A stretch of 64,000 nt of DNA from Bilabrum cf. latius (taxonomy: Eukaryota), in the NCBI GenBank assembly GCA_965178125.1, contig OZ237744.1, forward strand, positions 806,001 through 870,000, given 5' to 3'. The notes under the pieces are model-generated. The model did no database searches. It was not told the DNA's origin and saw only the letters and a program-made list of their open reading frames with translations. The translations under genes were made by a program, and so were the position numbers. Below are positions 39,470 to 64,000 of this stretch, in pieces; positions within the stretch are counted from its first letter, which is position 1, and each line of letters opens with the position of its first letter.

Positions 39470-39673
39470 GCTTTCTAGCCGTTTGATGAAAGTGCTACTG
39501 GGCAAGAGGCTGCGTTCAAGATGCTCGCACTCGGAATGCGACGAACTGCAACTGCGTGCCTGCGACACTTGATGACTGGGCATAACCAAGACCCATCCTG
39601 GAATTCGACGGTAATTCTAGATTCTCCCCAACTTAAGCTGGTGCATTATTTGGAACTGGGGTGAACTGTTCCA

Positions 39674-41677: not shown

Positions 41678-41889
41678 CCTCGAGTCTGCGTCTGGTCTGG
41701 CATGCTATCAGAGCACAGGCCCTTCGGTGACGGCCAGCGATGCGCCCTCAGGCTGCAGACGTCCAGGCAGGCTCCGGATCCTGTGATGTTGCTTCGGCAC
41801 CGTTTGCGTTTGTTGTTGTTCAAAGACGCACTCAAGGACAAATTTGCCACTTGAATGGTTCTGACATCCTGAAAATACCTTGTACGTTC

Positions 41890-44800
41890 ATGGCACATGC
41901 AGCAAAGCACCTGAAGTAGAATATTTGCGGAGCACTCTTGGCCGGATTCCTTTCGACAGCGAATGCCATCCACATATCCGATGCCATGGCGCGAAGTGGA
42001 CCCCAAATCATGATGTCTAGTGCAAGCTATGTAAACACTTGTAATGGTGAGCATGCCTGCTTATTGTATTCATATGAATCGAAGCGAACCTTTTAAATTG
42101 CACAAGAGCGGTTCATCACTTACAAATTTCTTGCAGCCACCTGGTTCGCCACTCGAGGCCCCAGCTCCATCGGCATCGGTGTCCATGCCACTCGAGACAA
42201 GCGTGTCATCGACTCTGCCGATGCCGCGGCGCGCCCGTCTCCTGATGGCGCTGACCTGGCCGGCTGCGAGCTGGTGCCCATCCCATGGACCCCTCGGGTC
42301 CCAGGCAACATGTCTCGGTGGCAGTGGGGCGGGGCCATGCCTGGGGGTATTGGAGGTGCGATGGGTCCGATCGCGGCGTGCAGGCAGAACGGCACTGACG
42401 GCGCTTCTGCGGCCATCGAGGAGTGTCTGGTGAACGCGACGCTGTCGGCTCCGATGGACGGGAGGTACCCGGCTGCAGCATCCCCGCAGGAGGCCCCATA
42501 TGCTGTGGGTGTGTCTCCTCGGAGCAGCGCGTTGTTGCCTCCGACTCGATCAGTGGAGCCGTGGACGACGGAGGAGTGGGTATTCCTCTTCCAGCAGGAC
42601 GGTGATATAGGCGATTGGCAGACTGGCGAGCTCTTGACAGGATCGTACCAGAGATACCGGGGAATATCGTCAGTGGGTGAATCCAAGCATCCGTGGGCGC
42701 CCACCTATTACAGCGCATTTCTGAACGCAGTTTCCTTTGGGCAGTACGTCGTTTTTGCCCCGTTCCGAGACCCGATAACGGACTTGTACCGGAGAGTAGG
42801 GACTGCGTATCTTCCCATGGTGTCTTGCGGTGCAGCTGTGCTGACCGATGTGTGCACTCCTGCAGGTGTACCAATCGCACCAAATGATACGTGCAGATAG
42901 GCCACAATGTGGCACAAAGTTCGGGCGAATGTGTCCAAATAGGCGTGCGAGCTGCACCCAGCGTAGCCGTCTGCTGCAGCCGCTTAGACATTCCCAATAA
43001 ACAATGGCTTGGCATCGAGCGTTATCAAGGATGTGCTGGTGTCCCACATCCCCAACCCACCAGGTACTACTTCATACCCATTTCCAGTGTCTGGAGCAGG
43101 TGTCGACAACAGGTGGCATCAGCTAGTCACCGTGGTGTATCCGCCTGGGACCGTGGCAATTATGTCGGTGCAGAGCGACGGAGACAGGACAACATTTCCA
43201 CCGCTGCAATACCCTTGGCAACTGAATCGTGGGTACGTGGTGCAGACGATGATGAACATAGCCCAGATTCCTGCTCTTTTTTCGCCTAACGCTGATGCGC
43301 AGTACAGCTACTCAGATGCTGGTTCCATGGTATGCGACAAAGGTGGATACGTGCAGACGCATGGCATGCCCAGCAATTTCACTTTCGACGCCTTTGTGTC
43401 CGCCCAGGTCATCTTGGACGATCCATCCTGTGTCGCCACGCAGACATGCAGTCCCGTGGCTCCCAGGAACCAGACACCTGGCAGCCCCGCCGTGTAGCAG
43501 GCCGTGAAGGACTGGATCAGGGATGTGTACTGGAAGCAGCCCATAGGCACTCGCATCCCACGCTTCGGATGCGCTGTTGACTACTTCATGCCGCCGTATG
43601 ACAACATATTCAGTATATTTGATCTGGTGCACATGGACTACCCCGCTGCAGCCTCCACCCGCATGGCCACCATCGGAGGATATGGCATGCCGGACCAGGC
43701 CCCAGCCAGAGGGACATGGAATGCGTCATCTAGCCATTCCACAACTACCAGTAGTATCCCAAGCTCAAAGGAAAAGTAGCGTCCTTCTGGCAGAATCGAT
43801 TCAAGCAGGATTCCCTGGCGACCTGTGCGACCAGCCGATCCAAACGGCCCTCAGCCATTACCGCGAGATCGGCCCGTGCTGTAGGGGCCCAAGGCCAGGT
43901 ACAGGGGTGCGGCGCTCTGGAGGCTGACGGCGCCGCCCGTCAACAAGTCCCTGCCGGCCATCCAGGGCGGGTACTGGACATGCATGGAGACGTCGCCGCT
44001 GGGCGCGTTCTTCATGCGTCCTGTGTGTCGGGCGGAGTGTTTGGATCCGTCGCGCGTGGCCGTGGACGTGGGCCTGCAGCGGCGGGCTGGCGATGGGTCT
44101 GGGCATGATGCGGGTCAGCATGGCATGTCTCTGGTGGCATCGCTGGCGCGTCCGTGGCTGTCGGCGTGGGGCGGGTATCCGTCGCTGGTGCAGAGCGAGA
44201 GCGTGGTGCCTCGATCGGACCGTCAGGGCGGGGGCATGGTGGCATCGTTCGGGAGCTGGTCTGGGTGGGGCGCGTGGCATGCGCCTCGGTACAGGCTGGG
44301 AGACGAGGTGGAGACGGACATGCGGTGCGTGCGCGACGTGGGCAGCAGCGTGTCGTGGCAGTCATTGTGGGCGCAGCGGGAGCCGACGAGCCGCGCGGAC
44401 GTGTGGCTGACTCTGTCATTCGACCGCGGCTACTGGCCAGCGGCATAGTCCAGCTCGGTGGGGGATGTGGGTCTGGACTACCCTCAGCCCACAGCGGCGC
44501 AGGTGCGTCGGCTGGAGGCGGAGGTGTCGGCCGACGTGGGCGACTTGCTGGGCGAGGTGGACTGGACTGCGCGCGGGCGGGGCGTGGAGGTGGGGATCGG
44601 GGAGCGTGTGAACAGGACAGCAGGCAACGACACGGTGGTGGCGCGACTGCAGACGCGGTCGATCGAGAGTCGCGTGATGTGGGTGCGGGCGCCTGGGCGT
44701 GTGGGTGTGGACTCGTTCCCGATGCATGTGCGTGTGCAAGTGTCTCTGAAGGAGCTGGCAGCAGTGCTGTATCCTTCATCTGTGAGTGGTGGCGTGCAGC

Positions 44801-46566
44801 GTGGTCGGTCGGCCGGGACACTTGCTCAGTAGCTGGTGGGCATTTTGCGCGGGCATCGTCCCGGGGCGGAGGGGGGAGCGTGGCTACCGGCGGTGGACGC
44901 AGGGAGTGTGTCATACCGCGTGCGTCTGCCTTGCTTGTCGGGCGGATATGGGTCGGATGCTCGTGAGTGCGGGGCGGTAGGCGCGGGATCATGGGTGAGC
45001 GCGTCTGGCGGGGTGTAGCTGGGGGTGTTGTTTATGCTGATTGTAGGTGTGTTTGGGGTAGTCGCAGGCTGGTGGATGCGTGGCTAGTACCTCAAGGACC
45101 GCATCGCAGTTGCAAATAGGAAGCCACTGCTGTCTGTTGCCTCCTCCAGAACACCAGACTCAGTAGAACATAGACTTAGGCTGGCTGATGCAGGGTCTTA
45201 CAGTAGATCAGAAGAGGAATTGACCTCATTTTCATGGAGATATGCACAGCTGTGTGGTGGGTTGGTGGGTGTGTTGAGTCTGTGGCGCTGGGCGCAGTAT
45301 GTTTGCCTTGGTGTCCTTCTTTTGTCCGTCAGGCTGAGCGGCCCCGGAACGTTGGTATTGATAGGCCTGCTGGTCGCTATTATAGGCCGAGAAGCCTTGC
45401 AATGGCTCTATGGCGGGACATTGTACAGCGGTAGCGAGTTGTCTGATGAGCTCTTGGCCATGGACGAGATCTCGCGGCCGGGGTTGCGCACGAGTTCATC
45501 TGGTCTCGGGTCAGTTCCAAGAATAATTCGCCACCGGAGAACAAGCGAGCTTTGGAAGTCCTCGGATGAACCAGTCGGTGCCAGGTTGTCGAGATAGACG
45601 GGTGGTGCCAAGGGCTCGAGCTACGCCCACAATGATATTATCTCGGCATCGCCGTCTTCGCCAAACGAACAGTCTACGGATGGTAGTTTGAACGAGTAGG
45701 ACGAAGATGACCCAGTTTTTCGCCTTTTTTCATAGCAAGGTAGTTCAATGTTCAAGAATCCAGGCGGTCCTGGACGGCTATAGACCAACGGCCGCTCGTA
45801 GGCAGCTGGATCTCAGCCTGATGACCTGGTGCTTGGCTGGAGGTAGTCTACTTAGGGCGCTGACACAACCCTCAGCAGCTTCAGTCGCGATGAATCTATA
45901 CCGTCGCAAGAAAAGGACTTCCAATTAGACTAGGATTGCTCCATAGAAGACTTGGAGATCGAGCTCCCTGGGGTAGCGGGCGCAGATGAGACCGTGGAGC
46001 CCAGTAGACCAGCGCCGGTGGCCGTCACGCGGCGAGCAACGCGACTAGTACCCGGAATTCTCGCTGCACACATGGGCAGGCACCTGGGTGCAAGTATTCT
46101 TGTCAGACTCTTGTCGGCGATTCAGTGGGACGCCTTCCAGCTGCTGTGGAGTGGCGCAGCGGAGTCGCTAGATCCAGTTGCTCCGTATTTACGCAAACTC
46201 GCAAGGGAGGGGTTGGCCAGTGGTGACATGGCTCCTCCGAGCCGACAATTTCTAATGCGAGCGCTTGGGTTGGCGTGGTTAGAGCGTACATCATCGTGGT
46301 TTCGATCGCTGGAAGACGCCTGCGTGGCTTTTGCTGTTGCCTGGTCGGCCCTGTGTGCCTTTGGGATCTGTAAGTGGTAGCAATGCATGGTGTCCTAGGC
46401 TGCTTCTCCTGAGGCGATTGCGTTCATAGCCACTGCACCAGAGCTTTATTGGGAGCATCTCGTTGGGGCCACTGCGACAACAGCGATTCTGACTCTAGCG
46501 CTGATGGTTGCATCATGCTGTTGGACAGTTTGGATGCATTCGCAAGCGTGCATGCGGTGGCAATGA
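41890..46566 (+). CDS. Variable surface/membrane protein family, copy A
   Basis: Signal-peptide exon 41890-42046, intron 42047-42136, then one frame broken only by TAGs to TGA 46564-46566. Cys-containing ectodomain followed by several TM segments. Confidence 0.8.
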
Positions 46567-46583
46567 AACAGGCAAATGAAACT

Positions 46584-49500
46584 TTAGCGTGTGGACACAA
46601 CAGTCACCGTCCAAACCACCGACAGCACAAGCGCCACACCCGACAGCCCCACAATCCACACCGTCGTGCCCACCACATGATCCCAGTACAGCGATGGGTC
46701 TGTTGCCAACATCGCCATCGCTGACTAAGACAGGCGCTGCCCAACCACGCACTGCCGCCACCCACATGCCCCCGAAGCGCAAGCCAAAGCCCAGCTGAAG
46801 CCCCCGATCACACACGCATCTTCCAAGCCACGGAACCACGCAGCCGCCCCGTCCACCCAGCTGGCCCCGACAAGTCTCAGGACGCGCTGCCGCTCACTGC
46901 ACGGGCTCCAAGCACCAGCCGTCTCACGATGCTGGTCGTACCGCCTGTGAGCCAGCGGATCGAGGGCTTCGGATGCGCCGGACCAGAGGAGCTGCAGAGC
47001 ATCCCACTGCAGCGTGGCAAGAAATCGCACCAGGATGGTAGCTCCGATGTGCTGGCTGGCATGCTGCCGAAGCGCCCTAGAAATAGCAAGGACGGGGCTT
47101 CTGCCAGCCGGCTTATGCGGGTGGCTGACCATACTGCGCACTATTCGAGAAGCTGCAGGCTCTTGACCTAGGTTAGCGGGCTCTTCAGTGCTGCCATCGG
47201 CACTGCTTGAGTCCATTGAGTTATGCCAGTGCCCTCGTGACAAACTGCCAGCTACCGCCCCAATGCCCATTTCACCTTCACTGGAGGAATCTGACGATGC
47301 TTCGAACACCGATGTGAAAGCCTCGATGACCTTGTCGTTAGCTTGCTAGTTTGAGCTCCACTCCGTCGAAGTCGCCCGCACTGCAAAATCATCTTCAGGT
47401 ACGGATGACGCTTCACCGACATTCGGTTCGCCAGAGTTACTCGATGACTACCTGTGCTTGCGGCTAGAATTAAACTAGCGCGTAAGCCCTGCTCTAGTCC
47501 CACCGGCCTTGGGGCGTGATTTACATGGCAGCTGGAGCTCTGGTGCAACAGCTGGCGACTGCCTTGTTGCAGGGGTCAATGCCCCTACTGAAAGCAGCGG
47601 AATGGGCAGGATCAGCACACGAAGGATGCTTGATACCACGATGCCCCCGAGCACCAGCAGCCCAGGGCTGCTCAGACGGACATTCACCAACACCACGCCA
47701 AGACTTACATACTGCGCCCAGCGCCACAGACTCAACACACCCACCAGCCCACCACACAGCTGGCCACAGCGCAACGGCTCACCAACCAAGGCTGCACAGC
47801 GCCATCCTGACTCTGATTGGCCCCCTGCAGCATCAGTGCCACTGTGCTCGCTGCTGCGATGCTGGATGCTCACACCCGCTGTCAGATTCGACACGGGAGT
47901 ACTAGCAAAGCTGCGGTCGCTCTCCGCACCTGGTAACCACTCGCCAACCAGCAATGGTGCCGTCAATGACCGCGAGTGGCGCTCATGCAGATACCGACCA
48001 CGCATCCACCAGCCTGTGACTACCCCAAACACACCTACAATCAGCATAAACAACACCCCCAGCTACACCCCGCCAGACACGCTCACCCATGATCCCGCGC
48101 CTACCGCCCCGCACTCACGAGCATCCGACCCATATCTGCCCGACAAGCAAGGCAGACGCACGCGGTATGACACACTCCCTGCGTCCACCGCCGGCAGCCA
48201 CGCTCCCCCCTTCGCCCCGGGACGATGCCCGCGCAAAATGCCCACCAGCTACTGAGCAAGTGTCCCGGCCGACCGACCACGCTGCACGCCACCACTCACA
48301 GACGAAGGATACAACACTGCTCCCAGCTCCTTCAGAGACACTTGCACACGCACATGCATCGGGAACGAGTCCACACCCACACGCCCAGGCGCCCGCACCC
48401 ACATCACGCGACTCTCGATCGACCGCGTCTGCAGTCGCGCCACCACCGTGTCGTTGCCTGCTGTCCTGTTCACACGCTCCCCGATCCCCACCTCCACGCC
48501 CCGCCCGCGCACAGTCCAGTCCACCTCGCCCAGCAAGTCGCCCACGTCGGCCGACACCTCCGCCTCCAGCCGACGCACCTGCGCCGCTGTGGGCTGAGGG
48601 TAGTCCAGACCCACATCCCCCACCGAGCTGGACTACGCCGCTGGCCAGTAGCTGCGGTCGAATGACAGAGTCAGCCACACGTCCGCGCGGCTCGTCGGCT
48701 CCCGCTGCGCCCACAGCGACTGCCACGACACGCTGCTGCCCACGTCGCGCACGCACCGCATGTCCGTCTCCACCTCGTCTCCCAGCCTGTACCGAGGCGC
48801 ATGCCACGCGCCCCACCCAGACCAGCTCCCGAACGATGCCACCATGCCTCCGCCCTGACGGTCCGATCGAGGCACCACGCTCTCGCTCTGCACCAGCGAC
48901 GGATACCCGCCCCACGCCGACAGCCACGGACGCGCCAGCGATGCCACCAGAGACATGCCATGCTGACCCGCATCATGCCCAGACCCATCGCCAGCCCGCC
49001 GCTGCAGGCCCACGTCCACGGCCACACGCGACGGATCCAAACACTCCGCCCGACACACAGGACGCATGAAGAACGCGCCCAGCGGCGACGTCTCCATGCA
49101 TGTCCAGTACCCGCCCTGGATGGCCGGCAGGGACTTGTTGACGGGCGGCGCCGTCAGCCTCCAGAGCGCCGCACCCCTGTACCTGGCCTTGGGCCCCTAC
49201 AGCACGGGCCGGTCGGGCGACAGGGGCTGAGGGCCGTCTGGATCGGCTGGTCGCACAGGTCGCCAGGGAATCCTGCTTGAATCGATTCTGCCAGAAGGAC
49301 GCTACTTTTCCTTTGAGCTTGGGATACTACTGGTAGTTGTGGAATGACTAGATGACGCATTCCATGTCCCTCTGGCTGGGGCCTGGTCCGGCATGCCATA
49401 TCCTCCGATGGCGGCCATGCGGGTGGAGGCTGCAGCGGGGTAGTCCATGTGCACAGGTGCGACTGATGGAGGAATCAATAAACCAGATGGATAGCCATCT

Positions 49501-51349
49501 CGTCCTACATAATAGCTCAGGTCGCATCCGAAACGCGGGATGCGAGTGCCGATGGGCTGCTTCCAGTATACGTCCCTGATCCAGTCCTTCACTGCCTGCT
49601 ACACGGCGGGGCTGCCAGGTGTCTGGTTCCTGGGAGCCACGGGGCTGCATGTCTGCGTGGCGACACAGGATGGATCGTCCAAGATGACCTGAGCAGAGAT
49701 AAATTGTTCATAGTCCTTTATATGGTTTGGTACTCCTTGTGATTCATCTAGACCGATTGTGGGTTCCTTGTTAGGACGACCGAACCTGTCGCACAGCATG
49801 GATCCAGCGTCTGAGTAGTCATATTGAGATTGCCCACCCGGGGATAGCACAGACGGGATGGAGGCTACGTTCATCATCGTCTGCACCACGTACCCTTCAT
49901 TGATGCGCCACGGGTAGGCGACACGCGGGAACTCTGCCCTGTCAGTCGTTGCTTGCACAACCATCTCGGCCACCGTCCCGGGGGGATACACCACGGTGAG
50001 GAGCTGATGCCATCTGTTGTCGACACCTGCCCCTGAGGATGGAAACCGGTAATCAAGTGTACCTGGTGGATTGGGGATGTGAGCTATTGTTCCGTGCAAC
50101 GTTTTCTCCGAAAGGAGATAATTGTTCTACGGGAAATGTTTTGCGTTCTTCGCCCACGGCTCGCCGTAGTCGTAGAAGCAGTCGCGCGGATCGGACGTGG
50201 CGTTCCAGTTGGGCCCACGCCAGAGAGTGGCCTGCCTGCATGTGTCATTGGGTGCTATGGGTACTCCGGCAGGCGTGCACACATCGCCCAGCTGCACGGC
50301 GGGACAAAGCCGTAATGGAACCTTGAACTTAGCTACTCGCGACTGCAGCTTAAGGTCTTCGTAAAAGCCATACTCCAGACTGTGCCCGTGAGTGACACTA
50401 CTTAGTTTTGCAGCGAAGAATGTCGGCGCCCACGGACGCTTGGATTCACCCACTGACGTTTCGCCGAGATATCGATGGTACGACCCTGTCAGCAGCTGGC
50501 CGGTCTCCTTGGACCTTCGTGGTGCACTTGGAAGCTCAAAAGTAAATACCCACTCCTCCGTCGTCCACGGCTCCACTGATCGAGTCGGAGGCAACAACGC
50601 GCTGCTCCGAGGTGACACACCCACAGCATATGGGGCCTCCTGCGGGGATGCTGCAGCCGGGTACCTCCCGTCCATCGGAGCCGACAGCGTCGCGTTCACC
50701 AGACACTCCTCGATGGCCGCAGAAGCGCCGTCAGTGCCGTTCTGCCTGCACGCCGCGATCGGACCCATCGCACCTCCAGTGCCCCCAGGCATGGCCCCGC
50801 CCCACTGCCACCGAGACATGTTGCCGGGGTACCGAGGGGTCCATGGGATGGGCACCAGCTCGCAGCCGGCCTGGTCAGCGCCATCAGGAGACGGGCGCGC
50901 CGCGGCATCGGCAGAGTCGATGACACGCTTGTCTCGAGTGGCATGGACACCGATGCCGATGGAGCTGGGGCCCCGAGTGGCGAACCATGTGGCTGCGAGG
51001 GGAGTGAAACAGGAAGCAAAACAAAGGTGGGCCACTCTGCTTTGCTGCATCTCGCCGGACTAAGTGACAATGCAGCTGCACAGCACAAGTACTAAACGAT
51101 GCAGGACTAATCTGCCCGTACAATTCGCAGAAGGGGTGAGGCGGACACCGAGACTCTATCGGAGGTGCAGGACTTGAGTCTATGCACACACCATCGTTCT
51201 GGCGGTCGTCAACAGTGCGCACCCACATACTCACAATTGCATTTCGACACAGTGCTACTCCCAAACAGCTGAATCTGGGGCCCAGCAGATTCCATAGCGT
51301 CCCGTATACTGATCCCGTTCGTCATGATGATCAGAGTCAAGGCAAACAT
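46584..51349 (-). CDS. Variable surface/membrane protein family, copy B (start approximate)
   Basis: Paralogous to A in inverted orientation; same first-exon/intron layout (GISIRDAMESAGPQ...CN|); ends at TAA 46584-46586. Confidence 0.8.
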
Positions 51350-51818
51350 AACACGAATAAACGGAGAGCACGCGGATTTACTTGGCCTATAGAATCGTAC
51401 ACCAAATACTCTCGTGCGCCTTCGTGCTTCAACGCATGCGGCAGCACAGCAAAAGTCCAATATCAAGCCTCTGAGTTGTGCGCCTCCCATCTGCCAGTGA
51501 CACATCATGGTGCTTCGGTTCGTGCCAGCTGTGACGTCCCAACGTGATCGCAGAGCAATCAATAATAGTCTCGTGGACAACGATTCAAACGTAGTCGCAG
51601 TAGGAGCTTTGCAATGAAGGCAGTGGATTTATGGTGCTAGCGGGCGCAATGACGAATGCACGCCACCGGCGGCATCTGGGTCGCAAGCGGTCGGAGAAAA
51701 TAAGGTATGCTTGAATTCCAATAAATGCACACTACGAGCAAAATTGTGTAAGGCCGCTCGATCACACAGCCCTACGTACAAGATTTGCTCTGCAAAATGC
51801 CCCCAGTATCGAGTTGGG

Positions 51819-54800
51819 TCAGTTCCTGCACGCCAACAAAACCACAGTCCAAACCACCGACAGCACAAGCGCCACACCCGACAGCCCCACAATCCACACC
51901 GTCGTGCCATCCACATGCTCCCAGTACAGCGATGGGTTCGATGCCAGCATCGCTATCGCGAACTCAGACAGGCGCTGCCCAACCACGCACTGCCGCCACC
52001 CACATGCCCCCGAAGCGCAAGCCAAAGCCCAGCTGAAGCCCCCGATCACACACGCATCTTCCAAGCCACGGAACCACGCAGCCGCCCCGTCCACCCAGCT
52101 GGCCCCGACAAGTCTCAGGACGCGCTGCCGCTCACTGCACGGGCTCCAAGCACCAGCCGTCTCACGATGTGTGTCGCGCGCCCTGCCTGCCAGCGGATCG
52201 AGGGCTTCGGATGCACCGGACCAGAATATCTGCAAGGCATCCCACTGCAGCGTGGCAAGAAATCGCACCAGGATGGTAGCTCCGATGTGCTGGCTGGCAT
52301 GCTGCCGAAGCGGCTGCTCTAGGGCACATGGGGCACTGGCGCTACCGATCTACTGATGAATCCATCCACGACGCGATTTGCTGGCTCCTTTCGCCACCGC
52401 TTCGTCGGATGTTGGGCTGCGATCAGACGCCCCTTGATCATTATCAGATTCTGAGCTTTTCTCCGGGTCTGCTTGCTACCGTCGCAGCTGTCCTGGCAGA
52501 TCGTAGTCATTGAGGCTATCCATTACTCCTGAGTCCATTGAGTAGCGCCAGCCTCGGTTGGGCTTATTGAGGGAGCTCACGCTTCCGCTTGAGGTGCCGG
52601 TGGTCTCGCTCGTGCCTGCTCCGAATCCAGCGATGCGGACGGCAATCGTTGGATCTGTCCCCACCTTCGCTAGTGTCCGCCGTTCCCGACTGCTGCCCAG
52701 GGCATCCCGACACGATGGAAGCTCTTCATTGCGATCCGACGTGACGTGGCTTGTTTCCGACAAGTTGATGAAATGAGACGAGTAGCTGTTACCGCCTTTT
52801 TCCGACTCAGATGAACCCGATTCCTGACCTGCCGCAACTCTACCGATGTTCCTGCTTCTCTTCAACCGGCCCGCTGACTCGACATACCGAGACGGGTCTT
52901 TCGGACCAAGGAATGCTCCTCCATGAACAACATAAAGCAGCCAACGGGACACCACTACCACCATGAGTCCTCCTAGGACCACCACACCGGGTCCATTCAG
53001 CCGCAGCAACAGGAGCATGACACCAAAGCAAACATACTGCGCCCAGCGCCACAGACTCAACACACCCACCAGCCCACCACACAGCTGGCCACAGCGCAAC
53101 GGCTCACCAACCAAGGCTGCACAGCGCCATGCTGACTCTGATTGGTCCCCTGCAGCATCAGTGCCACTGTGCTCGCTGCTCCGATGCTGGATGCTCACAC
53201 CCGCTGTCAGATTCGACACGGGACTACTAGCAAAGCTGCGGTCGCTCTCCGCACCTGGTGACCACTCGCCAACCAGCAATGGCGCTGTCAATGACCGCAA
53301 GTGACGCTCACGCAGATATTGACCACGCACGCCCCAACATACAACCATAAACATCGAACTCAGTAACAGCACCATCAACACCCCCAGCTACACCCCGCCA
53401 GACACGCTCACCCATGATCCCGCGCCAAAACCATCGCACTCACTGGCATGCTCAGCATACCCGCCCGACAAGCAAGGCAGACGCACGCGGTATGACACAC
53501 TCCCTGCGTCCACCGCCGGCAGCCACGCTCCCCCCTCCGCCCCGGGACGATGCCCGCGCAAAATGCCCACCAGCTACTGAGCAAGTGTCCCGGCCGACCG
53601 ACCACGCTGCACGCCACCACTCACAGATGAAGGATACAACACTGCTCCCAGCTCCTTCAGAGACACTTGCACACGCACATGCATCGGGAACGAGTCCACA
53701 CCCACACGCCCAGGCGCCCGCACCCACATCACGCGACTCTCGATCGACCGCGTCTGCAGTCGCGCCACCACCGTGTCGTTGCCTGCTGTCCTGTTCACAC
53801 GCTCCCCGATCCCCACCTCCACGCCCCGTCCGCGCACAGTCCAGTCCACCTCGCCCAGCAAGTCGCCCACGTCGGCCGACACCTCCGCCTCCAGCCGACG
53901 CACCTGCGCCGCTGTGGGCTGAGGGTAGTCCAGACCCACATCCCCCACCGAGCTGGACTACGCCGCTGGCCAGTAGCTGCGGTCGAATGACAGAGTCAGC
54001 CACACGTCCGCGCGGCTCGTCGGCTCCCGCTGCGCCCACAATGACTGCCACGACACGCTGCTGCCCACGTCGCGCACGCACCGCATGTCCGTCTCCACCT
54101 CGTCTCCCAGCCTGTACCGAGGCGCATGCCACGCGCCCCACCCAGACCAGCTCCCGAACGATGCCACCATGCCCCCGCCCTGACGGTCCGATCGAGGCAC
54201 CACGCTCTCGCTCTGCACCAGCGACGGATACCCGCCCCACGCCGACAGCCACGGACGCGCCAGCGATGCCACCAGAGACATGCCATGCTGACCCGCATCA
54301 TGCCCAGACCCATCGCCAGCCCGCCGCTGCAGACCCACGTCCACGGCCACACGCGACGGATCCAAACACTCCGCCCGACACACAGGACGCATGAAGAACG
54401 CGCCCAGCGGCGACGTCTCCATGCATGTCCAGTACCCGCCCTGGATGGCCGGCAGGGACTTGTTGACGGGCGGCGCCGTCAGCCTCCAGAGCGCCGCGCC
54501 CCTGTACCTGGCCTTGGGCCCCTACAGCACGGGCCGGTCGGGCGACAGGGGCTGAGGGCCGTCTGAAATGGACTGGCGTGACGGTGATTGACTCAAGCTG
54601 GGGCCAGGTGCGGACTTGCCGCTTGGGTCCAATACTCGACTACTGGTCGATGATGCGTTCCATGACCCTCTGGCTGGGGCCTGGTCCGGCATGCCGTATC
54701 CTCCGATGGCGGCCATGCGGGTGGAGGCTGCAGCGGGGTAGTCCATGTGCACCAGATCGTACATGGGCGGCAGGAGCAAGCCGGACGGGTAGAAGTCTTT

Positions 54801-56537
54801 CCCCGCATAGTAGCTCAGGTCGCATCCGAAACGCGGGGTGCGAGTGCCGATGGGCTGCTTCCAGTACACGTCCCTGATCCAGTCCTTCACGGCCTGCTAC
54901 ACGGCGGGGCTGCCAGGTGTCTGGTTCCTGGGAGCCACGGGGCTGCATGTCTGCGTGGCGACACAGGATGGATCGTCCAAGATGACCTGGGCGGACACAA
55001 GTGGATCCAATCCGTGCAATGTCTCTGCACTTGCAACAGAATTCTCTGATTGCGATGCTGGTCGATCGAACCTGTCGCACAGCATGGATCCAGCGTCTGA
55101 GTAGTCATATTGAGATTGCCCACCCGGGGATAGCACAGACGGGATGGAGGCTACGTTCATCATCGTCTGCACCACGTACCCTTCATTGATGCGCCACGGG
55201 TAGGCGACACGCGGGAAGTCGGCTGGGTCAGTCGTTGCTTGCACAGCCATCTCGGCCACCGTCCCGGGGGGATACACCACGGTGAGGAGCTGATGCCATC
55301 TGTTGTCGACACCTGCCCCTGAGGATGGAAACCGGTAGTCAAGTGTACCTGGTGGATTGGGGATGTGAGATGCCTGACCTTGCTGCTCCGAGTGGGACTG
55401 CTGTGCTTTGCCCCTCGTGAACGTCTTGGCCGATGCAACCTGTGGCTGACCATAATCTTGGTAACAGTCGCGTGGATCCGTCGTCAAGTTCCAACTCGAC
55501 TAACGCCAAAGCGTGGCCTGCCTGCATGTGTCATTGGGTGCTATGGGTACTCCGGCAGGCGTGCACACATCACCAAGGAGAACTGGACCGCATGCCGCAA
55601 CTGGTAGATTGTATTGCGCTACCCTACTAAGCAGAGCAGGCGCATCAAACGCGCCAAAGACAAGACTGTGACCGTGAGTGTTAGCTTTGACCCCTTGAAC
55701 GCTATGCGTTGGCGCCCACGGACGCTTGGATTCACCCACTGACGAAATACCGGTGTACCTCTCATAGGACGCAGTCAGCATCGCACCAGTGGCTAGCGGT
55801 CTCGGAATATGTGGCTGCGCGAATGCAAGCGCCCACTCCTCCGTCGTCCACGGCTCCACTGATCGAGTCGGAGGCAACAACGCGCTGCTCCGAGGAGACA
55901 CACCCACAGCATATGGGGCCTCCTGCGGGGATGCTGCAGCCGGGTACCTCCCGTCCATCGGAGCCGACAGCGTCGCGTTCACCAGACACTCCTCGATGGC
56001 CGCAGAAGCGCCGTCAGTGCCGTTCTGCCTGCACGCCGCGATCGGACCCATCGCGCCTCCAGTGCCCCCAGGCATGGCCCCGCCCCACTGCCACCGAGAC
56101 ATGTTGCCGGGGTACCGAGGGGTCCATGGGATTGGCACCAGCTCGCAGCCGGCCTGGTCAGCGCCATCAGGAGACGGGCGCGCCGCGGCATCGGCAGAGT
56201 CGATGACACGCTTGTCTCGAGAGGCATGGACACCGATGCCGATGGAGCTGGGGCCTCGAGTGGCGAACCATGTGGCTGCGAGGGGAGTGAAACAGGAAGC
56301 AAAGCAAAGGTGGGCCACTCTGCTTTGCTGGATCTCGCCTAGCACACACCATCGTTCTGGCAGCCGTCAACAGTGCGCACCCACATACTCACAATTACAT
56401 TTCGACACCGTACTACTTCCAAACAGCTGAATCTGGGGCCCAGCAGATTCCATTGCGTCCCGTATACTGATCCCGTTTGTCGAACGAACAATCAGCAGTC
56501 CCGTGGCGAATAGAAGCTACATGAGTGAAAGCTCCAT
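51819..56537 (-). CDS. Variable surface/membrane protein family, copy C
   Basis: MELSLM[TAG]LLFATGLLIV signal exon; direct paralog of B; TGA 51819-51821. Confidence 0.8.
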
Positions 56538-56844
56538 ACGAAAAGAAGAGGTTACAGCCAGTGCTTTGGTGGCCTCCTAATTCCTGGGATTGGGTCTTTG
56601 CATCAGAGCTCCAGGCTCAAAACTACCTAATTCTTGCAGCTATCCCATCCATAGATCCAAGTCATGGCGCTTTTTGTCGCGTAAATTGTATGTACGGCTG
56701 ACCCGAAAGATAAAGGGTTAGTTTGTGAAAAAGAGAGATTAGAGGCTTGCGAAACTTTGCTGTGTGTTCGTGATCGCCCAGTCAATTCGGCGCCTGGTTT
56801 TAATCTTCTTCTTGAAAGTTCAACACGCTACAAAGACGCCTGCC

Positions 56845-59048
56845 AGTGAAAGAGAGGCTCCAGCACGGGCACCATCAAAGGATCGTGACCGACACCGGAC
56901 GATACGTTGAATGTGGACAAGTCGGGTACGCAGACGACTACGTGGCACTGACGTCGAACTGGAACGAAGCAGTGGCGGTCATGAAGCTAGTCAAGAGCCT
57001 GTTTGCACTTGCGGGCATGTAGCTGGGAATCAAGCCCCTGACAGCATCGGGCCAGGGAACCAAGACAGCGATCATGGCCTTTGGCTACGCTCGGGACTCA
57101 ATTCCTGGGGACATGCCAGAGGGCGTCGCATGCAGAGCAGCGGACGCGGGAGAGGCGGATGGGGAGTGGACCATCCCACTTGCCTCATCCTACCTGTACC
57201 TCGGTCTACTCATTTCGACCCAACCGGTACGGATCAGCCCAGATGAAGTAGCTGGGCTGACGCAGGCGAGAGACATCTGGGTAATTGATATGGCACCCCA
57301 CGTACGCAGGAGGATTGCGATGGCGTACCGGGCGGCCAGGGACATCACACGAGCGGCGGTGAACGGCAACTGGGCGGTCTCCCTGCACGCCCAGCTGCTC
57401 CATGCAGGAGCAATCACGAGTGCATTCTACGGAGCAGAGGCAGCGGCATGTGCAACAGGATGGGACACCTTGTCAGGATTAGGATATGGTTCCCAAGTTT
57501 TCTACGGGATGGAACTGAACCTGGAAGTCCTCAAGATGCTGGACAAATTCCTGCTGGATATGCGCTGGATGATTGTCAGCGGATCGACACAGGTAAGGCC
57601 CTTCACCATGGGCGGTCGATACGTGCCAAACCTTGCGATGGACACTGAGCTGCTGACGGCATCGGCAGCAGGGCGTGTTGCTATGGGCCTGCTGGACCTG
57701 ATCGAGTGTCCCTCGAAGAAGGGCCTTGATGTTGCGGCCAGGTTCATCCACCAGGGCCGATTCCTGCAGGGACCACCAGTACAGACAGGCCCACTCGGGG
57801 CCGCGCTGGCACTGGGATTCAGGATCAAGATGGCAGGGTGGACCCAACGGATCGATGACGCGAAGGACTGGCTGGGATGCCAGGAGACTGCAAAAAAAGT
57901 CACAAAGTGGAGGAAATCCAAATCCGGAGCTGCTGACCGATCGTTCACAAGCCTGAGCCTGGGATGCTCGCACGATCCGGCACTGTCGGATTGGGACCGG
58001 GAGAGCGCCGCGCTCGGAGTGGTCATGCTTAACCGGTACGCAACGAAGGGACGGTATGCCTTCGGACCAGGAGCCATGCCAACAGCAGCGGTGGTGCAGG
58101 AATACGGCCACCAAGGAAGACGAATTCTGCGCATCCGAGCTGGACAATACCCGCAACAGGGCACGCCCAACCTTCAAGTGATGGGCACCGCGGTAGAGCA
58201 GATGGAGCGGGCCGAGCATGACCATCATGCCGGAACGAGACCGTGGCAACCCGATGATGCGGATCAGAATAGAGGGAGGTCCCCTGCCTCTCTCCGGAAA
58301 GCATGGGCGAAGACAGCTCTCGCTCAGGACCCTTGGGACGAGAAGCTGGAGCGCACCAGCAGGGCCAAGCCAATCGTCGAAGACGCACTCACTCGGATAG
58401 AGCGTACGATTGCGCGGTCATCGGAACGGACAGCTGTCAAGGAGCTGGCCAACCGAGTGGTGCAGGTGATCAGGAACCAGCTGCGCTAGCAGGAGTAGCT
58501 GACGTGCAGGCAGTGGATGCGAGGCGATGCGGCGGCTGCTCTTGCCGCCACGGCCACGCAAGAGCTGATAGCGGCAACCAATGCGAACGCTCGGCTACAG
58601 CGACGGATGTTTAAGCCCCACGGCTTGCTAAGGGACATAGAGAGGCAATGGGCCAAAGGCATGAGCGCGTGCATGCTAGCCTCTCTGAAGGACCGTGAGA
58701 CGCAGAGACGGTCATGGAGGAGGAAATGGTGGGTCCCGGCAGGGGACCCTGATGTGGGACTGGACCGCGCTTTGTGCCGGGCACATGCTCCGCACCTGTA
58801 TGCTTTCTCCCTGTGAAGGCATCAGGCTGAGGGCTTGTGGGGGACCACATTGATGGCGAATGAAGGGGACTCGGCGGTGTAGGCTGAGATTGGGGGGCCT
58901 TTGGCCTGAAAGGGTCGGGGGTCTTGTAGTCCTTGTTTGAGGACTCCTCTGGATTCAGGTGATCACTCGAACTCCTTCGGGGGCAACGGTGCATCTGGGT
59001 GCTTGTGGAATCTTTACCCAACAATGTATTTCTGTATTTCTGTATTTA
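56845..59048 (+). mobile_element. 5'-truncated non-LTR retrotransposon (LINE-like), C-terminal half of RT
   Basis: YADD at 56927-56938 is in frame, via TAG 57020, with ORF 57074, which carries IPLASSYLYLG and AFYGAE (end-of-RT/thumb-like motifs). The frame continues through TAG 58487 and 58496 to TGA 58814-58816. 3' tail of (TGTATTTC)x2 + TGTATTTA at 59025-59048. Confidence 0.8.
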
Positions 59049-59197
59049 GTGGTCGCAACCGGAGCTGCCGCTTCACCAGCAGGGGATATTCATGTTGTTT
59101 CCGATTGTGATTCATGTTCCGTACTTGAAAAATGCCTGCATCGCACGCGAAAAATAAACATCCCACAGCCTCCACCCGACCTGCACCCGTCCAAAGG

Positions 59198-62100
59198 TCA
59201 GTTCCTGCACGCCAACAAAACCACAGTCCAAACCACCGACAGCACAAGCGCCACACCCGACAGCCCCACAATCCACACCGTCGTGCCATCCACATGCTCC
59301 CAGTACAGCGATGGGTTCGATGCCAGCATTGCCATCGCGAACTCAGACAGGCGCTGCCCAACCACGCACTGCCGCCACCCACATGCCCCCGAAGCGCAAG
59401 CCAAAGCCCAGCTGAAGCCCCCGATCACACACGCATCTTCCAAGCCACGGAACCACGCAGCCGCCCCGTCCACCCAGCTGGCCCCGACAAGTCTCAGGAC
59501 GCGCTGCCGCTCACTGCACGGGCTCCAAGCACCAGCCGTCTCACGATGTGTGTCGCGCGCCCTGCCTGCCAGCGGATCGAGGGCTTCGGATGCGCCGGAC
59601 CAGAATATCTGCAAGGCATCCCACTGAATTGCCATCAGGATTTCCATGAACACTGTGATACCAACGTGCTAACCAGCATGCAATCGCATAAGGGCCCTAC
59701 CCTCAGGGCCTCTGCGGCTGCCATTGCTGCTGCTTGAATCGGACGGCAACACTGCACCTGCACGGCCGTTCGTACTTCCAGGACCTGGCTGCAACGACAT
59801 GCCAACCGAGGCACTGCTGCTTCCTTGGCTCGCTTGTGGTTGCAGACCCTTCGGGGTACTGCTGCTTCCTTGGCTTGCTTGCGGTTGCAGACCCACCGAG
59901 GCACTGCTGCTTCCTTGGCTTGCTTGCGGCGGCAGACCCACCGAGGCACTGCTGCTTCCTTGGCTTGCTTGCGGCGGCAGACCCACCGAGGCACTGCTGC
60001 TTCCTTGGCTTGCTTGCGGCGGCAGACCCACCGAGGCACTGCTGCTTCCTTGGCTTGCTTGCGGCGGCAGACCCACCGAGGCACTGCTGCTTCCTTGGCT
60101 TGCTTGCGGCGGCAGACCCACCGAGGCACTGCTGCTTCCTTGGCTAGGTCGAGGAGGTTGCCCTGCAGAGGCATCGGTGCGATCCAAACCGAGCGGCTGA
60201 GCCAGCTCGATCTCCGCAGCATCAGCGTCGTCGTCACCGGAAGGGCTGCGTTGCTGCTCCTCATCGTTCTCAGCGTTGACACCATGGTTTGGATGGACAT
60301 CGGGCTTATCAGGTGCAACAACGTCCTCAAGATTCCCACCATGGAACGTTTTAATCACAGACTGTTCGTCTGAGTCACGATCTCTCCAATACTTCGATGA
60401 CCCTCCACTCGACACCTCTGATTCCGAGCTACTTCGGTCCTCTGATTCGCCTGCCTATATGGCTGCTCCGTGAGTAACCTCAACGTTTGACCCGGACATG
60501 TCGTCCAAGTCAGGCCCTACCTAGTCATTTCCGATCTGCTCCCTCTAGTAGCTATCCACGCTCAACACGCTGGAAGGAGAGCCACAACCACAGAATGCCC
60601 TCACCGCAACGGACAGTACCAGTCCTCCCAGGACCACCACACCGGGTCCATTCAGCCGCAGCAACAGGAGCATGACACCAAAGCAAACATACTGCGCCCA
60701 GCGCCACAGACTCAACACACCCACCAGCCCACCACACAGCTGGCCACAGCGCAACGGCTCACCAACCAAGGCTGCACAGCGCCATGCTGACTCTGATTGG
60801 CCCCCTGCAGCATCAGTGCCACTGTGCTCGCTGCTCCGATGCTGGATGCTCACACCCGCTGTCAGATTCGACACGGGACTACTAGCAAAGCTGCGGTCGC
60901 TCTCCGCACCTGGTGACCACTCCCCAACCAGCAATGGCGCTGTCAATGACCGCAAGTGACGCTCATGCAGATACCGACCACGCACGCCCCAACATACAAC
61001 CATAAACATCGAACTCAGTAACAGCACCATCAACACCCCCAGCTGCACCCCGCCAGACACGCTCACCCATGATCCCATTCCGAAACTTTCACAGTCGCTG
61101 GCATGCTCAGCATACCCGCCCGACAAGCAAGGCAGACGCACGCGGTATGACACACTCCCTGCGTCCACCGCCGGCAGCCACGCTCCCCCCTCCGCCCCGG
61201 GACGATGCCCGCGCAAAATGCCCACCAGCTACTGAGCAAGTGTCCCGGCCGACCGACCACGCTGCACGCCACCACTCACAGATGAAGGATACAGCACTGC
61301 TGCCAGCTCCTTCAGAGACACTTGCATACGCACATGCATCGGGAACGAGTCCACACCCACACGCCCAGGCGCCCGCACCCACATCACGCGACTCTCGATC
61401 GACCGCGTCTGCAGTCGCGCCACCACCGTGTCGTTGCCTGCTGTCCTGTTCACACGCTCCCCGATCCCCACCTCCACGCCCCGCCCGCGCACAGTCCAGT
61501 CCACCTCGCCCAGCAAGTCGCCCACATCGGCCGACACCTCCGCCTCCAGCCGACGCACCTGCGCCGCTGTGGGCTGAGGGTAGTCCAGACCCACATCACC
61601 CACCGAGCTGGACTACGCCGCTGGCCAGTAGCTGCGGTCGAATGACAGAGTCAGCCACACGTCCGCGCGGCTCGTCGGCTCCCGCTGCGCCCACAATGAC
61701 TGCCACGACACGCTGCGGCCCACGTCGCGCACGCACCGCATGTCCGTCTCCACCTCGTCTCCCAGCCTGTACCGAGGCGCATGCCACGCGCCCCACCCAG
61801 ACCAGCTCCCGAACGATGCCACCATGCCCCCGCCCTGACGGTCCGATCGAGGCACCACGCTCTCGCTCTGCACCAGCGACGGATACCCGCCCCACGCCGA
61901 CAGCCACGGACGCGCCAGCGATGCCACCAGAGACATGCCATGCTGACCCGCATCACGCCCAGACCCATCGCCAGCCCGCCGCTGCAGACCCACGTCCACG
62001 GCCACACGCGACGGATCCAAACACTCCGCCCGACACACAGGACGCATGAAGAACGCGCCCAGCGGCGACGTCTCCATGCATGTCCAATACCCGTCCTGGA

Positions 62101-64000
62101 TGGCCGGCAGGGACTTGTTGACGGGCGGCGCCGTCAGCCTCCAGAGCGCCGCGCCCCTGTACCTGGCCTTGGGCCCCTACAGCACGGGCCGGTCGGGCGA
62201 CAGGGGCTGAGGGCCGTCTGAAATGGACTGGCGTGACGGTGATTGACTCAAACTGGGGCCGGGTGCGGACTTATCGCTTGGGCTCTATACTCGACTACTG
62301 GTTGATGATGCATTCCATGCACCTCTGGCTGGGGCCTGGTCCGGCATGCCATATCCTCCGATGGCGGCCATGCGGGTGGAGGCTGCAGCGGGGTAGTCCA
62401 TGTGCACCAGATCGTACATGGGCGGCAGGAGCAAGCCGGACGGGTAGAAGTCTTTCCCCACATAGTAGCTCAGGTCGCATCCGAAACGCGGGGTGCGAGT
62501 GCCGATGGGCTGCTTCCAGTACACGTCCCTGATCCAGTCCTTCACGGCCTGCTACACGGCGGGGCTGCCAGGTGTCTGGTTCCTGGGAGCCACGGGGCTG
62601 CATGTCTGCGTGGCGACACAGGACGGATCGTCCAAGATGACCTGCGCAGATGCGATAGAGCCAAATTCAACCGATTGCGTCCCGTCGGTAGTACTTATTG
62701 CTTGATTCGGAATCGGTCTTCCTTCCGGATCGCACAGCATGGATCCAGCGTCTGAGTAGTCGTAGAGCGCACCACCATCCGGGGATAGCACAGACGGGAT
62801 GGAGGCTACGTTCATCATCGTCTGCACCACGTACCCTTCATTGATGCGCCACGGGTAGGCGACACGCGGGAAGTCGGTTGGGTCAGTCGTTGCTTGCACA
62901 ACCATCTCGGCCACCGTCCCGGGGGGATACACCACGGTGAGGAGCTGATGCCACCTGTTGTCGACACCTGCCCCTGAGGATGGAAACCGGTAATCAAGGG
63001 TACCTGGCGGGTTGGGGATGTGGGCTGCCTGACTCTGCAAGGTGGTCTCTCGGGCGACAAAGCTGTTTTGTGGGAAGGCCTTGGCTGACGCGGCCCAAGG
63101 CTAACCAACGTCATTGTAGCAGTCGCGCGGATCGGACGTGGCGTTCCAGTTGGATCCACGCCAAAGCGTGGCCTGCCTGCATGTGTCATTGGGTGCTAGG
63201 GGTACTCCGGCAGGCGTGCACACATCGCCCAGCTGCACGGCCGGGCAATCTGCGACGGGGATGTTGTATTGCGCGACCATGGAGGCCTGCACTGGAAACA
63301 AATAGGTACCTGGGACGAGGCTATGCCCATGCGCAACGTTGTCCCGCACGCTGGAGTAGTACGTCGGCGCCCACGGACGCTTGGATTCCCCGACAGGTGT
63401 TGCTCCCGGGTACCTCTCGTATGAACCGCTCAGGAGCGGGCCCTGCACGGCGGTACCCGCCCGGGATACGTGTGGGACAAACGAAAATACCCACTCCTCC
63501 GTCGTCCACGGCTCCACTGATCGAGTCGGAGGCAACAATGCGCTGCTCCGAGGAGACACACCCACAGCATATGGGGCCTCCTGCGGGGATGCTGCAGCCG
63601 GGTACCTCCCGTCCATCGGGGCCGACAGCGTCGCGTTCACCAGACACTCCCCGATGGCCGCAGAAGTGCCGTCAGTGCCGTTCTGCCTGCACGCCGCGAT
63701 CGGACCCATCGAGCCTCCAGTGCCCCCAGGCATGGCCCCGCCCCACTGCCATCGAGACATGTTGCCTGGGACCCGAGGGGTCCATGGGATAGGCACCAGC
63801 TCGCAGCCGGCCAGGTCAGCGCCATCAGGAGACGGGCGCGCCGCGGCATCGGCAGAGTCGATGACACGCTTGTCTCGAGTGGCATGGACACCGATGCCGA
63901 TGGAGCTGGGGCCCCGAGTGGCGAACCAGGTGGCTGCAGGAAACAAAAACTGAGAATTACATCGGACTCACGACGAATATACATAGACGAGCTCGACAAT
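59198..64000 (-). CDS. Variable surface/membrane protein family, copy D (first exon beyond window end)
   Basis: Direct paralog of B and C; splice acceptor near 63936; TGA 59198-59200. Confidence 0.8.
59805..60145 (-). repeat. 45-bp coding tandem repeat, about 7.5 units (SQGSSSASVGLPPQA)
   Basis: Unit gaggcactgctgcttccttggcttgcttgcggcggcagacccacc repeated head to tail within copy D. Confidence 0.95.

Follow-up and report, generated by a model that had tools for sequence, protein, structure and literature searches.

How can neighbouring genes be almost letter-identical over hundreds of codons and, a few codons further on, be barely alignable? This question was raised by the right-hand third of a 64,000-nucleotide (nt) window, the whole stretch of DNA analysed here, from Bilabrum cf. 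latius (assembly GCA_965178125.1, contig OZ237744.1, positions 806,001 to 870,000 of the forward strand). A preliminary description, made from the letters alone, had noticed there an array of four large membrane-protein genes in which invariant scaffolds alternate with hypervariable ectodomain cassettes. We found that the region 41890..64000 carries four intact paralogs, A to D, each of ~1500-1580 amino acids (aa) once TAG is read as glutamine, with A on the + strand, B, C and D on the - strand, and A and B placed tail to tail. It is very probable, taking the three points jointly, that these are real paralogs, that UAG is read as glutamine, and that the mosaic was produced by gene conversion among copies that keep old islands of divergence. 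The whole statement, in which the converted paralog cluster also encodes a recognition or adhesion receptor, we hold to be slightly likelier true than false.

The genes become visible only when the code is changed. With standard stops (table 11), the sense strand of the four genes is fragmented into pieces of at most 307 aa. With TAG read as glutamine, the stop-to-stop frames extend over 42097-46566 (+) in A (1489 codons, 21 in-frame TAGs), 46584-51230 (-) in B (1548 codons, 14 TAGs), 51819-56366 (-) in C (1515 codons, 8 TAGs) and 59198-63967 (-) in D (1589 codons, 10 TAGs), which bore out the earlier remark that the genes are invisible under the standard code. The peptide strings quoted at that time were all recovered in these translations, including the four differing segments after DAGSMxCD. 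The frames end at homologous positions, with TGA in A, C and D and TAA in B, and five neighbouring genes also end with TGA. In the paralog alignment, the codon that most commonly faces TAG is CAG (10 times). Between species, where the window was compared with two metagenome relatives, glutamine was the sole partner of TAG in 7 of the 11 well-conserved columns; the partners in the other four were I/R/N/G, Y, E and H/S.

The neighbouring open reading frames (ORFs) were eukaryotic: Rib72/EFHC, a mitochondrial carrier, an Rtf1-type Plus-3 protein, ankyrin repeats, GH88, an amino-acid transporter and a short-chain dehydrogenase (SDR). The Rib72, mitochondrial carrier, SDR and Rtf1 genes contain 3-4 in-frame TAGs each. 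The Rib72-like protein (22924-25557, - strand) has three DM10 domains and EF-hands, and its best PDB match is Chlamydomonas RIB72 (E 7e-63). One of its three in-frame TAGs, at residue 281, falls on a position where Chlamydomonas RIB72 and mammalian EFHC1 have a conserved Trp; this column is an unexplained exception, and the other TAG columns of the protein are compatible with glutamine or lie at variable positions. A transfer RNA (tRNA) scan of the 64-kb window found no tRNA genes, and hence no tRNA-Gln with anticodon CUA within it. The host, a flagellated eukaryote, reads UAG as glutamine and uses UAA and UGA as stops.

In A, B and C, the long exon is preceded by a short one. The frame of exon 2 opens at a pyrimidine-rich ..CAG acceptor immediately before TWFATRGP, and a homologous short upstream exon in A, B and C ends with ..(K/T)CN before a GTGAG donor. 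A full-length relative from a metagenome, locus L001, reads ..RTCNSTWFATVGP.. across the exon 1/exon 2 junction without an intron, and a database fragment, P0028, reads ..TCNSTWYA.. uninterrupted at the same place. In addition, one contig of a sequencing run, X5, joins 56275 to 56393 and skips 117 nt whose ends are CT..AC on the + strand, i.e., GT..AG on the gene strand, and the join coincides exactly with the predicted intron ends of C. The kind of run X5 is uncertain (its label is 'RNA? (probably DNA)'), and the join represents either a spliced transcript or an intron-less allele. We conclude that the genes have two exons, of which exon 1 encodes the signal peptide. The array of four genes with signal peptides that had been described earlier was thus confirmed in its number and, for A, B and C, its predicted signal peptides, including the start at 41890, which is the ATG of A's first exon; the genes do not all lie on one strand, and the signal peptide sits on a separate exon 1 behind an intron of 90-242 nt. 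The gene models are as follows.

41890..42046, + strand: copy A exon 1, with ATG, a signal-peptide-like N-terminus and a ..TCN end before a GTGAGC donor; the L001 ortholog aligns there (tblastn).
42047..42136, + strand: copy A intron, 90 nt, GT..AG, phase 1; predicted, without read confirmation.
42137..46566, + strand: copy A exon 2; spliced coding sequence of 1528 aa, 22 TAG, TGA stop.
46584..50992, - strand: copy B exon 2; spliced coding sequence of 1507 aa, 11 TAG, TAA stop.
50993..51234, - strand: copy B intron, 242 nt, predicted.
51235..51349, - strand: copy B exon 1, a short hydrophobic N-terminus; start codon uncertain.
51819..56275, - strand: copy C exon 2; spliced coding sequence of 1533 aa, 9 TAG, TGA stop.
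56276..56392, - strand: copy C intron, 117 nt, GT..AG; predicted, matched by the run X5 contig join.
56393..56537, - strand: copy C exon 1, a signal peptide containing one TAG.
59198..63933, - strand: copy D exon 2, at least 1577 aa, 10 TAG, TGA stop.
63934..64000, - strand: region upstream of copy D, with the CAG acceptor, a possible 38-nt intron and 29 nt of unrelated exon, up to the window end.

A is the most divergent of the four copies, and the signal peptide of B is weak. Upstream of D, a GTGAGT..CAG pair lies 38 nt apart at 63934-63971, and the sequence preceding it is unlike exon 1 of A, B and C. With 67 nt between the D acceptor and the window end, the first exon of D may be different, or it may lie farther away, beyond that end. 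The stop codons of A (TGA) and B (TAA) are separated by 17 bp (46564-46586); because the two genes converge, their 3' untranslated regions must overlap on opposite strands.

To describe the mosaic, we compared the four copies in a protein-guided codon alignment and smoothed the sliding DNA identity into blocks from alignment column 81 onward. Ten conserved and ten variable blocks were obtained, with DNA identities of 95-100% and 13-65%, respectively. At the 19 boundaries, 0-9 of the 30 nt flanking the junction varied within the conserved block, compared with 9-23 of 30 within the variable one; 16 boundaries were clear-cut (at most 7 vs at least 12 of 30) and those at columns 399, 474 and 671 were blurred, so the abrupt alternation of nearly identical DNA with variable segments noted earlier is a measurable property of the array. 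The switch from scaffold to cassette takes place within ~10 codons. The ectodomain cassettes, seven stretches, all lie before column 672, i.e., in the membrane-distal 60%, and the intracellular loops and the tail also diverge between copies. Three blocks illustrate the contrast.

Membrane-proximal block of 361 codons (1083 nt): A 43858-44940 (+), B 48141-49223 (-), C 53466-54548 (-), D 61121-62203 (-); 99-100% identical in all four copies.
Cassette V1: A 42574-42849 (+), B 50283-50555 (-), C 55569-55838 (-), D 63224-63496 (-); 90-92 aa, all four differ, 41-51% aa identity.
Cassette V5, after DAGSMxCD: A 43330-43404 (+), B 49692-49796 (-), C 54990-55082 (-), D 62645-62737 (-); A 25, B 35, C 31 and D 31 aa, barely alignable, 24-32% aa identity.

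The first of these is the block before the first membrane segment that had been put at ~1.2 kb; it is present, and its measured length is 1083 nt.

Both kinds of block behaved as coding sequence. Variable blocks differ in length between copies, always by whole codons, and contain no TGA or TAA in 3296 codons, where 84.5 were expected from the off-frame density (P ~6e-38); in the ectodomain cassettes alone, none was found in 1237 codons against 31.7 expected. The cassettes also retain partial motifs. In the scaffold, the synonymous divergence (dS) was 0.030-0.095 and the ratio of nonsynonymous to synonymous divergence (dN/dS) was 0.09-0.28. In the ectodomain cassettes, the proportion of synonymous differences (pS) was 0.50-0.70 (dS 0.8-2.0 or unmeasurable), dN was 0.28-0.65 and dN/dS 0.29-0.46, and in the less saturated comparisons single blocks gave dN/dS of 0.2-0.9, none above 1. 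These results support that the four genes are intact and constrained, functional paralogs. The word 'hypervariable', taken as fast or programmed change, did not hold: the cassette dS is saturated, so the cassettes are old and not newly mutated, their dN/dS never exceeds 1, and they were letter-identical in the four sequencing runs considered below. The possibility that variable segments are spliced out, raised at the same time, is answered by a run X5 contig that covers 54697-55571 of C and continues unbroken through four cassettes, and by the lack of stops in the variable codons; other joints lack GT..AG ends.

Comparative analysis of the blocks further showed that different parts of one exon have different histories. 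In columns 627-671, 50 sites group the copies as AB|CD and none supports another topology, and columns 1033-1159 add 40 more AB|CD sites. The N-terminal block holds 5 AD|BC sites, other blocks are marked by 65, 100 and 190 A-only sites, and in cassette V1 the three topologies are nearly equal (7, 13 and 9 sites). In a test with 2000 permutations, none gave a concordant run as long as the longest observed for the pairs AB, BC, BD and CD; 33 did so for AC and 91 for AD. The comparison with L001 gave the same picture from outside the array. In the scaffold blocks, identity among the paralogs is 95-100%, and their identity to L001 is mostly 53-88%, falling to 12-30% in two short blocks. In most cassettes, the corresponding values are 24-50% and 11-50%, with particular pairs 71-100% alike in some cassettes. 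In columns 373-418, A is nearer to L001 (50%) than are B, C and D (33-38%). A 10- to 30-fold synonymous difference between adjacent stretches of one exon is not accounted for by any point-mutation process, and these patterns support that the mosaic reflects interlocus gene conversion with old divergence islands, a mechanism that the preliminary description had not named. On this simplest reading, old duplicates are continually homogenised by interlocus conversion, above all in the 361 aa next to the membrane. The seven distal ectodomain stretches, the intracellular loops and the tail have escaped conversion and differ between copies as much as from the ortholog of another species. Whole islands are occasionally transferred between copies; A has two in common with B, and C has the alternatives in common with D.

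The reality of the copies was assessed with contigs of four runs from four studies, of which the best-matching run may be the window's own source. These contigs reproduce the unique parts of all four copies with 0 differences, and those of run X1 bridge both the A|B junction (45277-46638) and the B|C spacer (51266-51876), so the copies, whose possible origin in misassembly had been left for checking in the preliminary description, are borne out. Short-read contigs break at the conserved blocks, and the long-range order rests on the window's assembly. In run X1, a conserved-block contig had a depth of 149 vs 36-47 for unique contigs (~3-4x), which fits about four copies, contig depth being a weak measure that does not rank genes. 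Run X7 contained variants 1-6% different in the conserved parts, which are either other strains or further copies. In run X5, the summed contig depth was 57-120 over C (51605-56273) vs 0-8 over A and B (41600-51604), and it was roughly even in run X1. The X5 pattern looks more like RNA than DNA, and if it is RNA, it gives a weak hint that C is the predominantly expressed copy.

What kind of protein carries this mosaic? A hydropathy map of A to D revealed an ectodomain of ~960 aa (958-973) with 17 Cys, 16 of them in columns common to L001, and 10-12 NxS/T sequons. It is followed by a first transmembrane segment (TM1), a loop of ~80-100 aa and a tight hairpin of TM2 and TM3. Next come a low-complexity loop, rich in Ser and ~280-420 aa long, and a C-terminal module in which one hydrophobic segment is strong and two are weaker; the threshold is passed by only 4-5 hydrophobic segments. 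The same layout extends over the full length of L001. The architecture proposed earlier was largely retained (signal peptide, Cys-containing ectodomain, membrane segments, low-complexity loop and hydrophobic tail), with the correction that the tail, called 'TM-rich', has one strong segment plus weaker ones. The predicted topology would place the N-terminus outside the cell, at the plasma membrane. In D, the large cytosolic loop contains 7.6 tandem copies of a 45-bp unit (95% matches, 59805-60145), which encodes a 15-aa Ser/Gly/Gln-rich repeat and is confined to this loop among the four copies.

No known family was recognised, as had been stated at the outset. Pfam searches (E <=0.1) gave no family for A, B or the membrane protein upstream of the array, nor for the relatives L001 and L003 and five fragments, and PDB sequence-profile searches from two family alignments gave no match at E <=1. 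A word-indexed protein search at similar lengths found none among 8000 scored candidates at E <=0.001, and the same kind of search for shorter proteins found 4 matches, all from ENA assemblies and without a protein name. An exhaustive HMMER search identified 58 relatives at E <=0.001, 28 of them at E <=1e-10. All 58 are fragments of 65-546 aa, and they are 27-64% identical except for P0002 at 97%. P0001 and P0018 are 100% identical to stretches of the TAG-containing frame of L001, and P0008, P0029, P0042 (100%) and P0033 (99%) to stretches of that of L003; the database relatives therefore look like pieces cut at TAG codons. The metagenome scan that gave L001 yielded four loci. The full-length L001 has an overall identity of ~46%, which rises to 50% in its best segment, and contains 20 TAGs; L003 and L004 are 46% identical and L002 is 44%. 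L003 and L004 differ from each other at 1 of 3676 nt and so give no between-strain information. Scans of viral and prokaryote contigs with the family pattern returned 34 and 58 pattern-matching stretches, respectively, and no relative.

L001 is a positional ortholog because it adjoins the ortholog of the SDR gene that flanks the array. Between L001 57-6514 and window 38417-51230, the SDR gene directly follows the family gene in L001; in the window, a Cys-rich, multi-pass membrane protein of 667 aa (39674-41677, no Pfam match) and the inverted copy A stand between it and the array. Family-wide motifs, among them PPTRSVEPWT.E.W, NDTCRQ, RWHQ..TVVYPPGTVA, LLDDPSCV, DYPAAA and GP.ARYRG, coincide with the invariant scaffold of the array, and the cassettes fall on stretches in which indels are frequent throughout the family. 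Another fragment, P0044, is 84% identical over 125 aa to the otherwise unique tail of A and 42% to that of B, so at least one 'variable' type is stably inherited elsewhere. As judged from these alignments, the proteins belong to an undescribed, lineage-restricted family of large membrane glycoproteins. We know of no description of this family; the literature word searches behind this statement were not aimed at the family itself.

Fold comparisons provided leads. AlphaFold2 models from shallow alignments had a mean predicted local distance difference test (pLDDT) of 45.5 for the N part and 56.0 for the C part, and Foldseek returned no match at E <=0.001 for the C part against PDB and BFVD or for the N part against PDB. 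In the C-part model (pLDDT 56), residues ~250-445, the last ~200 before TM1, have a predicted beta-alpha-beta-beta-alpha-beta order, which resembles the element order of SEA-like and EpCAM-Trop2 C-domain modules directly before a membrane helix; VIA-align sets these residues beside ferredoxin-like alpha/beta modules. The top VIA-align rows for this part were Trop2 (Z 6.8, root-mean-square deviation 3.5, 112 aligned), MUC16 SEA (Z 6.5) and TMPRSS6 (9nrc; Z 6.2), and the Gpr126 extracellular region (Z 5.9) and a transmembrane-protease SEA domain (Z 5.7) appeared further down; all these values lie below the stated VIA-align background of Z 7-8. Pfam SEA had no match at E <=0.1 in A, B, L001, L003 or five fragments, and the G/S[VI]VV autoproteolysis motif is absent between the predicted beta2 and beta3 of the array translation; many SEA-like domains also lack this motif. 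We treat the likeness of the membrane-proximal module to SEA domains as a lead and claim no membership. For the N part, all 14 VIA-align rows with Z >=2 seem to be beta-sandwiches, which we take from entry titles to be of laminin-G/LNS type or similar, at Z <=3.3 on a model of pLDDT 45.5. In neurexins, which contain such domains, variable inserts sit in loops around the binding face. The likeness to LNS/laminin-G domains lies in the beta-sandwich rows, the difference in the low Z and in the lack of a Foldseek or Pfam match for the array, and this model-based likeness is likewise a lead and not evidence of membership.

The topology and the position of the variation suggest a function, which we put forward tentatively, at somewhat short of an even chance. 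On a stalk common to all four, each gene would display its own set of outer loops, and the proteins would be cell-surface recognition or adhesion receptors with copy-specific binding, whose variable cytosolic loops would give copy-specific signalling or regulation. The receptor or surface-antigen role suggested earlier, with prey, virus or self as what is recognised, would likewise follow from the topology and the place of the variation. Several observations weigh against this reading. No known binding domain was recognised by Pfam or PDB profile searches, the N-out topology is taken from a predicted signal peptide that is weak in B, and models with pLDDT of 45.5 and 56.0 are too poor to present the cassettes as surface loops. 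Cassette dN/dS (0.2-0.9) never exceeds 1 and the most divergent cassettes are saturated, so diversifying selection was not demonstrated. The coincidence of cassettes with indel-rich stretches is equally expected from simple low constraint. The copies number only about four, and their cassettes did not differ among the four runs compared. On the side of the gene models, the X5 join could come from an intron-less allele, since the kind of run is uncertain and the L001 ortholog lacks this intron.

The main rival, and a strong one, is neutral loop drift: the copies would be redundant duplicates, e.g., from dosage amplification, and the cassettes unconstrained loops that drifted past the identity threshold for conversion and have been refractory to it since. 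Such models are in print (bioRxiv 10.1101/2025.10.29.685298 and PMC3728101). As this explanation would have it, the cassettes occupy positions at which distant members of the family also show indels and low conservation, their dN/dS is below 1, and the intracellular low-complexity loops are equally or more divergent. However, the cassettes keep the reading frame without stops and retain partial motifs, and their dN below dS indicates that they are constrained, not free. Ectodomain variation is only distal, next to 361 proximal residues that are 99-100% identical, whole cassette types are common to non-adjacent copies, and one type persists at 84% identity in another record (P0044). We regard drift as possible but less likely than not. 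A bolder version of the recognition reading, that the array is a germline combinatorial system for mating-type, kin, prey or symbiont recognition, in which conversion preserves the invariant stalk and reshuffles the loop cassettes upon it, we think improbable; if true, a new receptor fold family would be doing what MHC, Tgr or het systems do elsewhere.

Programmed variation would account for the scaffold-and-cassette design and for the cassettes in common between copies: in an antigenic or phase-variation system, one copy is expressed at a time and cassettes are moved to the expression site by segmental conversion. The X5 depth over C against A and B is a weak hint in this direction, from a measure that does not rank genes. 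However, only about four copies are present and no silent archive was seen, the conserved-block contig reaching, by the same weak measure, only ~3-4x the unique depth; the window holds four copies, and the L001 protein matches nothing else there. Moreover, each of A, B and C comes with an exon 1, a signal peptide and a full ORF of its own, the cassettes show no difference among the four runs, and the saturated dS indicates that the cassette types are old. A switching antigen system is accordingly unlikely, with a very small probability in our estimate. Nearly as small, and only a little larger, is the chance that the membrane segments form a transporter, channel or enzyme which the ectodomain serves as a sensor or accessory part, with paralogs differing in regulation. 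The several membrane segments, the conserved C-terminal hydrophobic module common to L001, and large cytosolic Ser-rich loops that could be phosphoregulatory would agree with this, but no Pfam family was found in four window proteins or seven relatives (E <=0.1), there was no PDB profile match, and the number of hydrophobic segments passing the threshold is small. Hardly credible is an artefact, i.e., mis-assembled repeats, pseudogenes, or cassettes that are introns. The breaking of short-read contigs at conserved blocks leaves the order to the assembly; on the other side stand the identical unique parts in four runs, the X1 contigs across A|B and B|C, four open frames under purifying selection, cassette lengths that keep the frame without stops, and the X5 contig that passes unbroken through four C cassettes, with no GT..AG ends at other joints.

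With recognition by a converted paralog cluster as the preferred reading, the array can be set beside known systems. Interlocus conversion with persisting divergence islands is reported for tandem paralogs, HMA4 in Arabidopsis halleri (bioRxiv 10.1101/2025.10.29.685298) and GOT1 in Tigriopus (PMC3728101). These cases share with the array neighbouring paralogs, a mosaic of near-identical and deeply diverged segments, segment-specific trees, and paralogs that are nearer to each other than to orthologs in converted tracts. The array differs from both in its approximately ten alternations within one exon, its length-differing islands in the outer ectodomain and its one inverted copy. Neisseria pilE/pilS minicassettes and Anaplasma Msp2 are mosaic variant surface-protein families. 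The block mosaics of PfEMP1/var represent another such family (PMC2440560). These systems and the array have in common framework blocks that alternate with variable cassettes in an exposed protein and cassettes that recur among copies in different combinations; unlike them, the array consists of about four apparently complete genes with their own first exon, and has no silent archive, no sign of ongoing switching and no sequence or fold relationship to them. Dictyostelium TgrB1/C1 are polymorphic self/non-self recognition receptors. The het NLRs of Podospora are self/non-self recognition receptors with high internal conservation (PMC12222747). The likeness is that recognition specificity resides in a few variable stretches of otherwise homogenised sequence, and the difference lies in protein architecture; no partner gene was identified for the array. 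The evolutionary pattern is of a known kind. The novelty lies in the protein family itself, in its concealment by a variant code, and in how many and how regular the alternations are.

Two further features of the region are not family members. The stretch between C and D is occupied by a mobile element.

56835..59047, + strand: retroelement fragment, high-copy and 5'-truncated, with a 666-aa open frame containing a YADD motif.

Its ORF had no Pfam family. Contig depth rises from ~660 on the 5' side to ~6800 near the 3' end, vs ~40 for the flanking genes, with loose ends at 56835 and 59045-59047; such a gradient is typical of a high-copy, 5'-truncated non-LTR (long terminal repeat) element. A diversity-generating retroelement was considered and ruled out by the length differences of cassettes between copies, the reverse transcriptase-like ORF being part of this high-copy fragment. 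Inside the invariant block of all four copies, antisense ATG ORFs of 326 aa without TAG were observed at 44012-44992 (-), 48089-49069 (+), 53414-54394 (+) and 61069-62049 (+). They were rejected as genes, as they are Pro/Ala/Thr/Arg-rich and their GC content at third codon positions (0.57) is below that at first and second positions (0.70-0.77), and they are probably a by-product of the G-rich coding strand.

The databases hold this family only as unnamed fragments because gene callers stop at UAG, and surface proteomes of variant-code organisms are systematically missed. The array is an unusually clean natural example of the alternation of conversion and divergence islands, repeated about ten times in a single exon, and lends itself to measurements of conversion-tract lengths and of the identity threshold at which conversion is blocked. 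Should the outer cassettes set binding specificity, they would open a way to study how the cells of a little-known protist lineage recognise one another or their prey.

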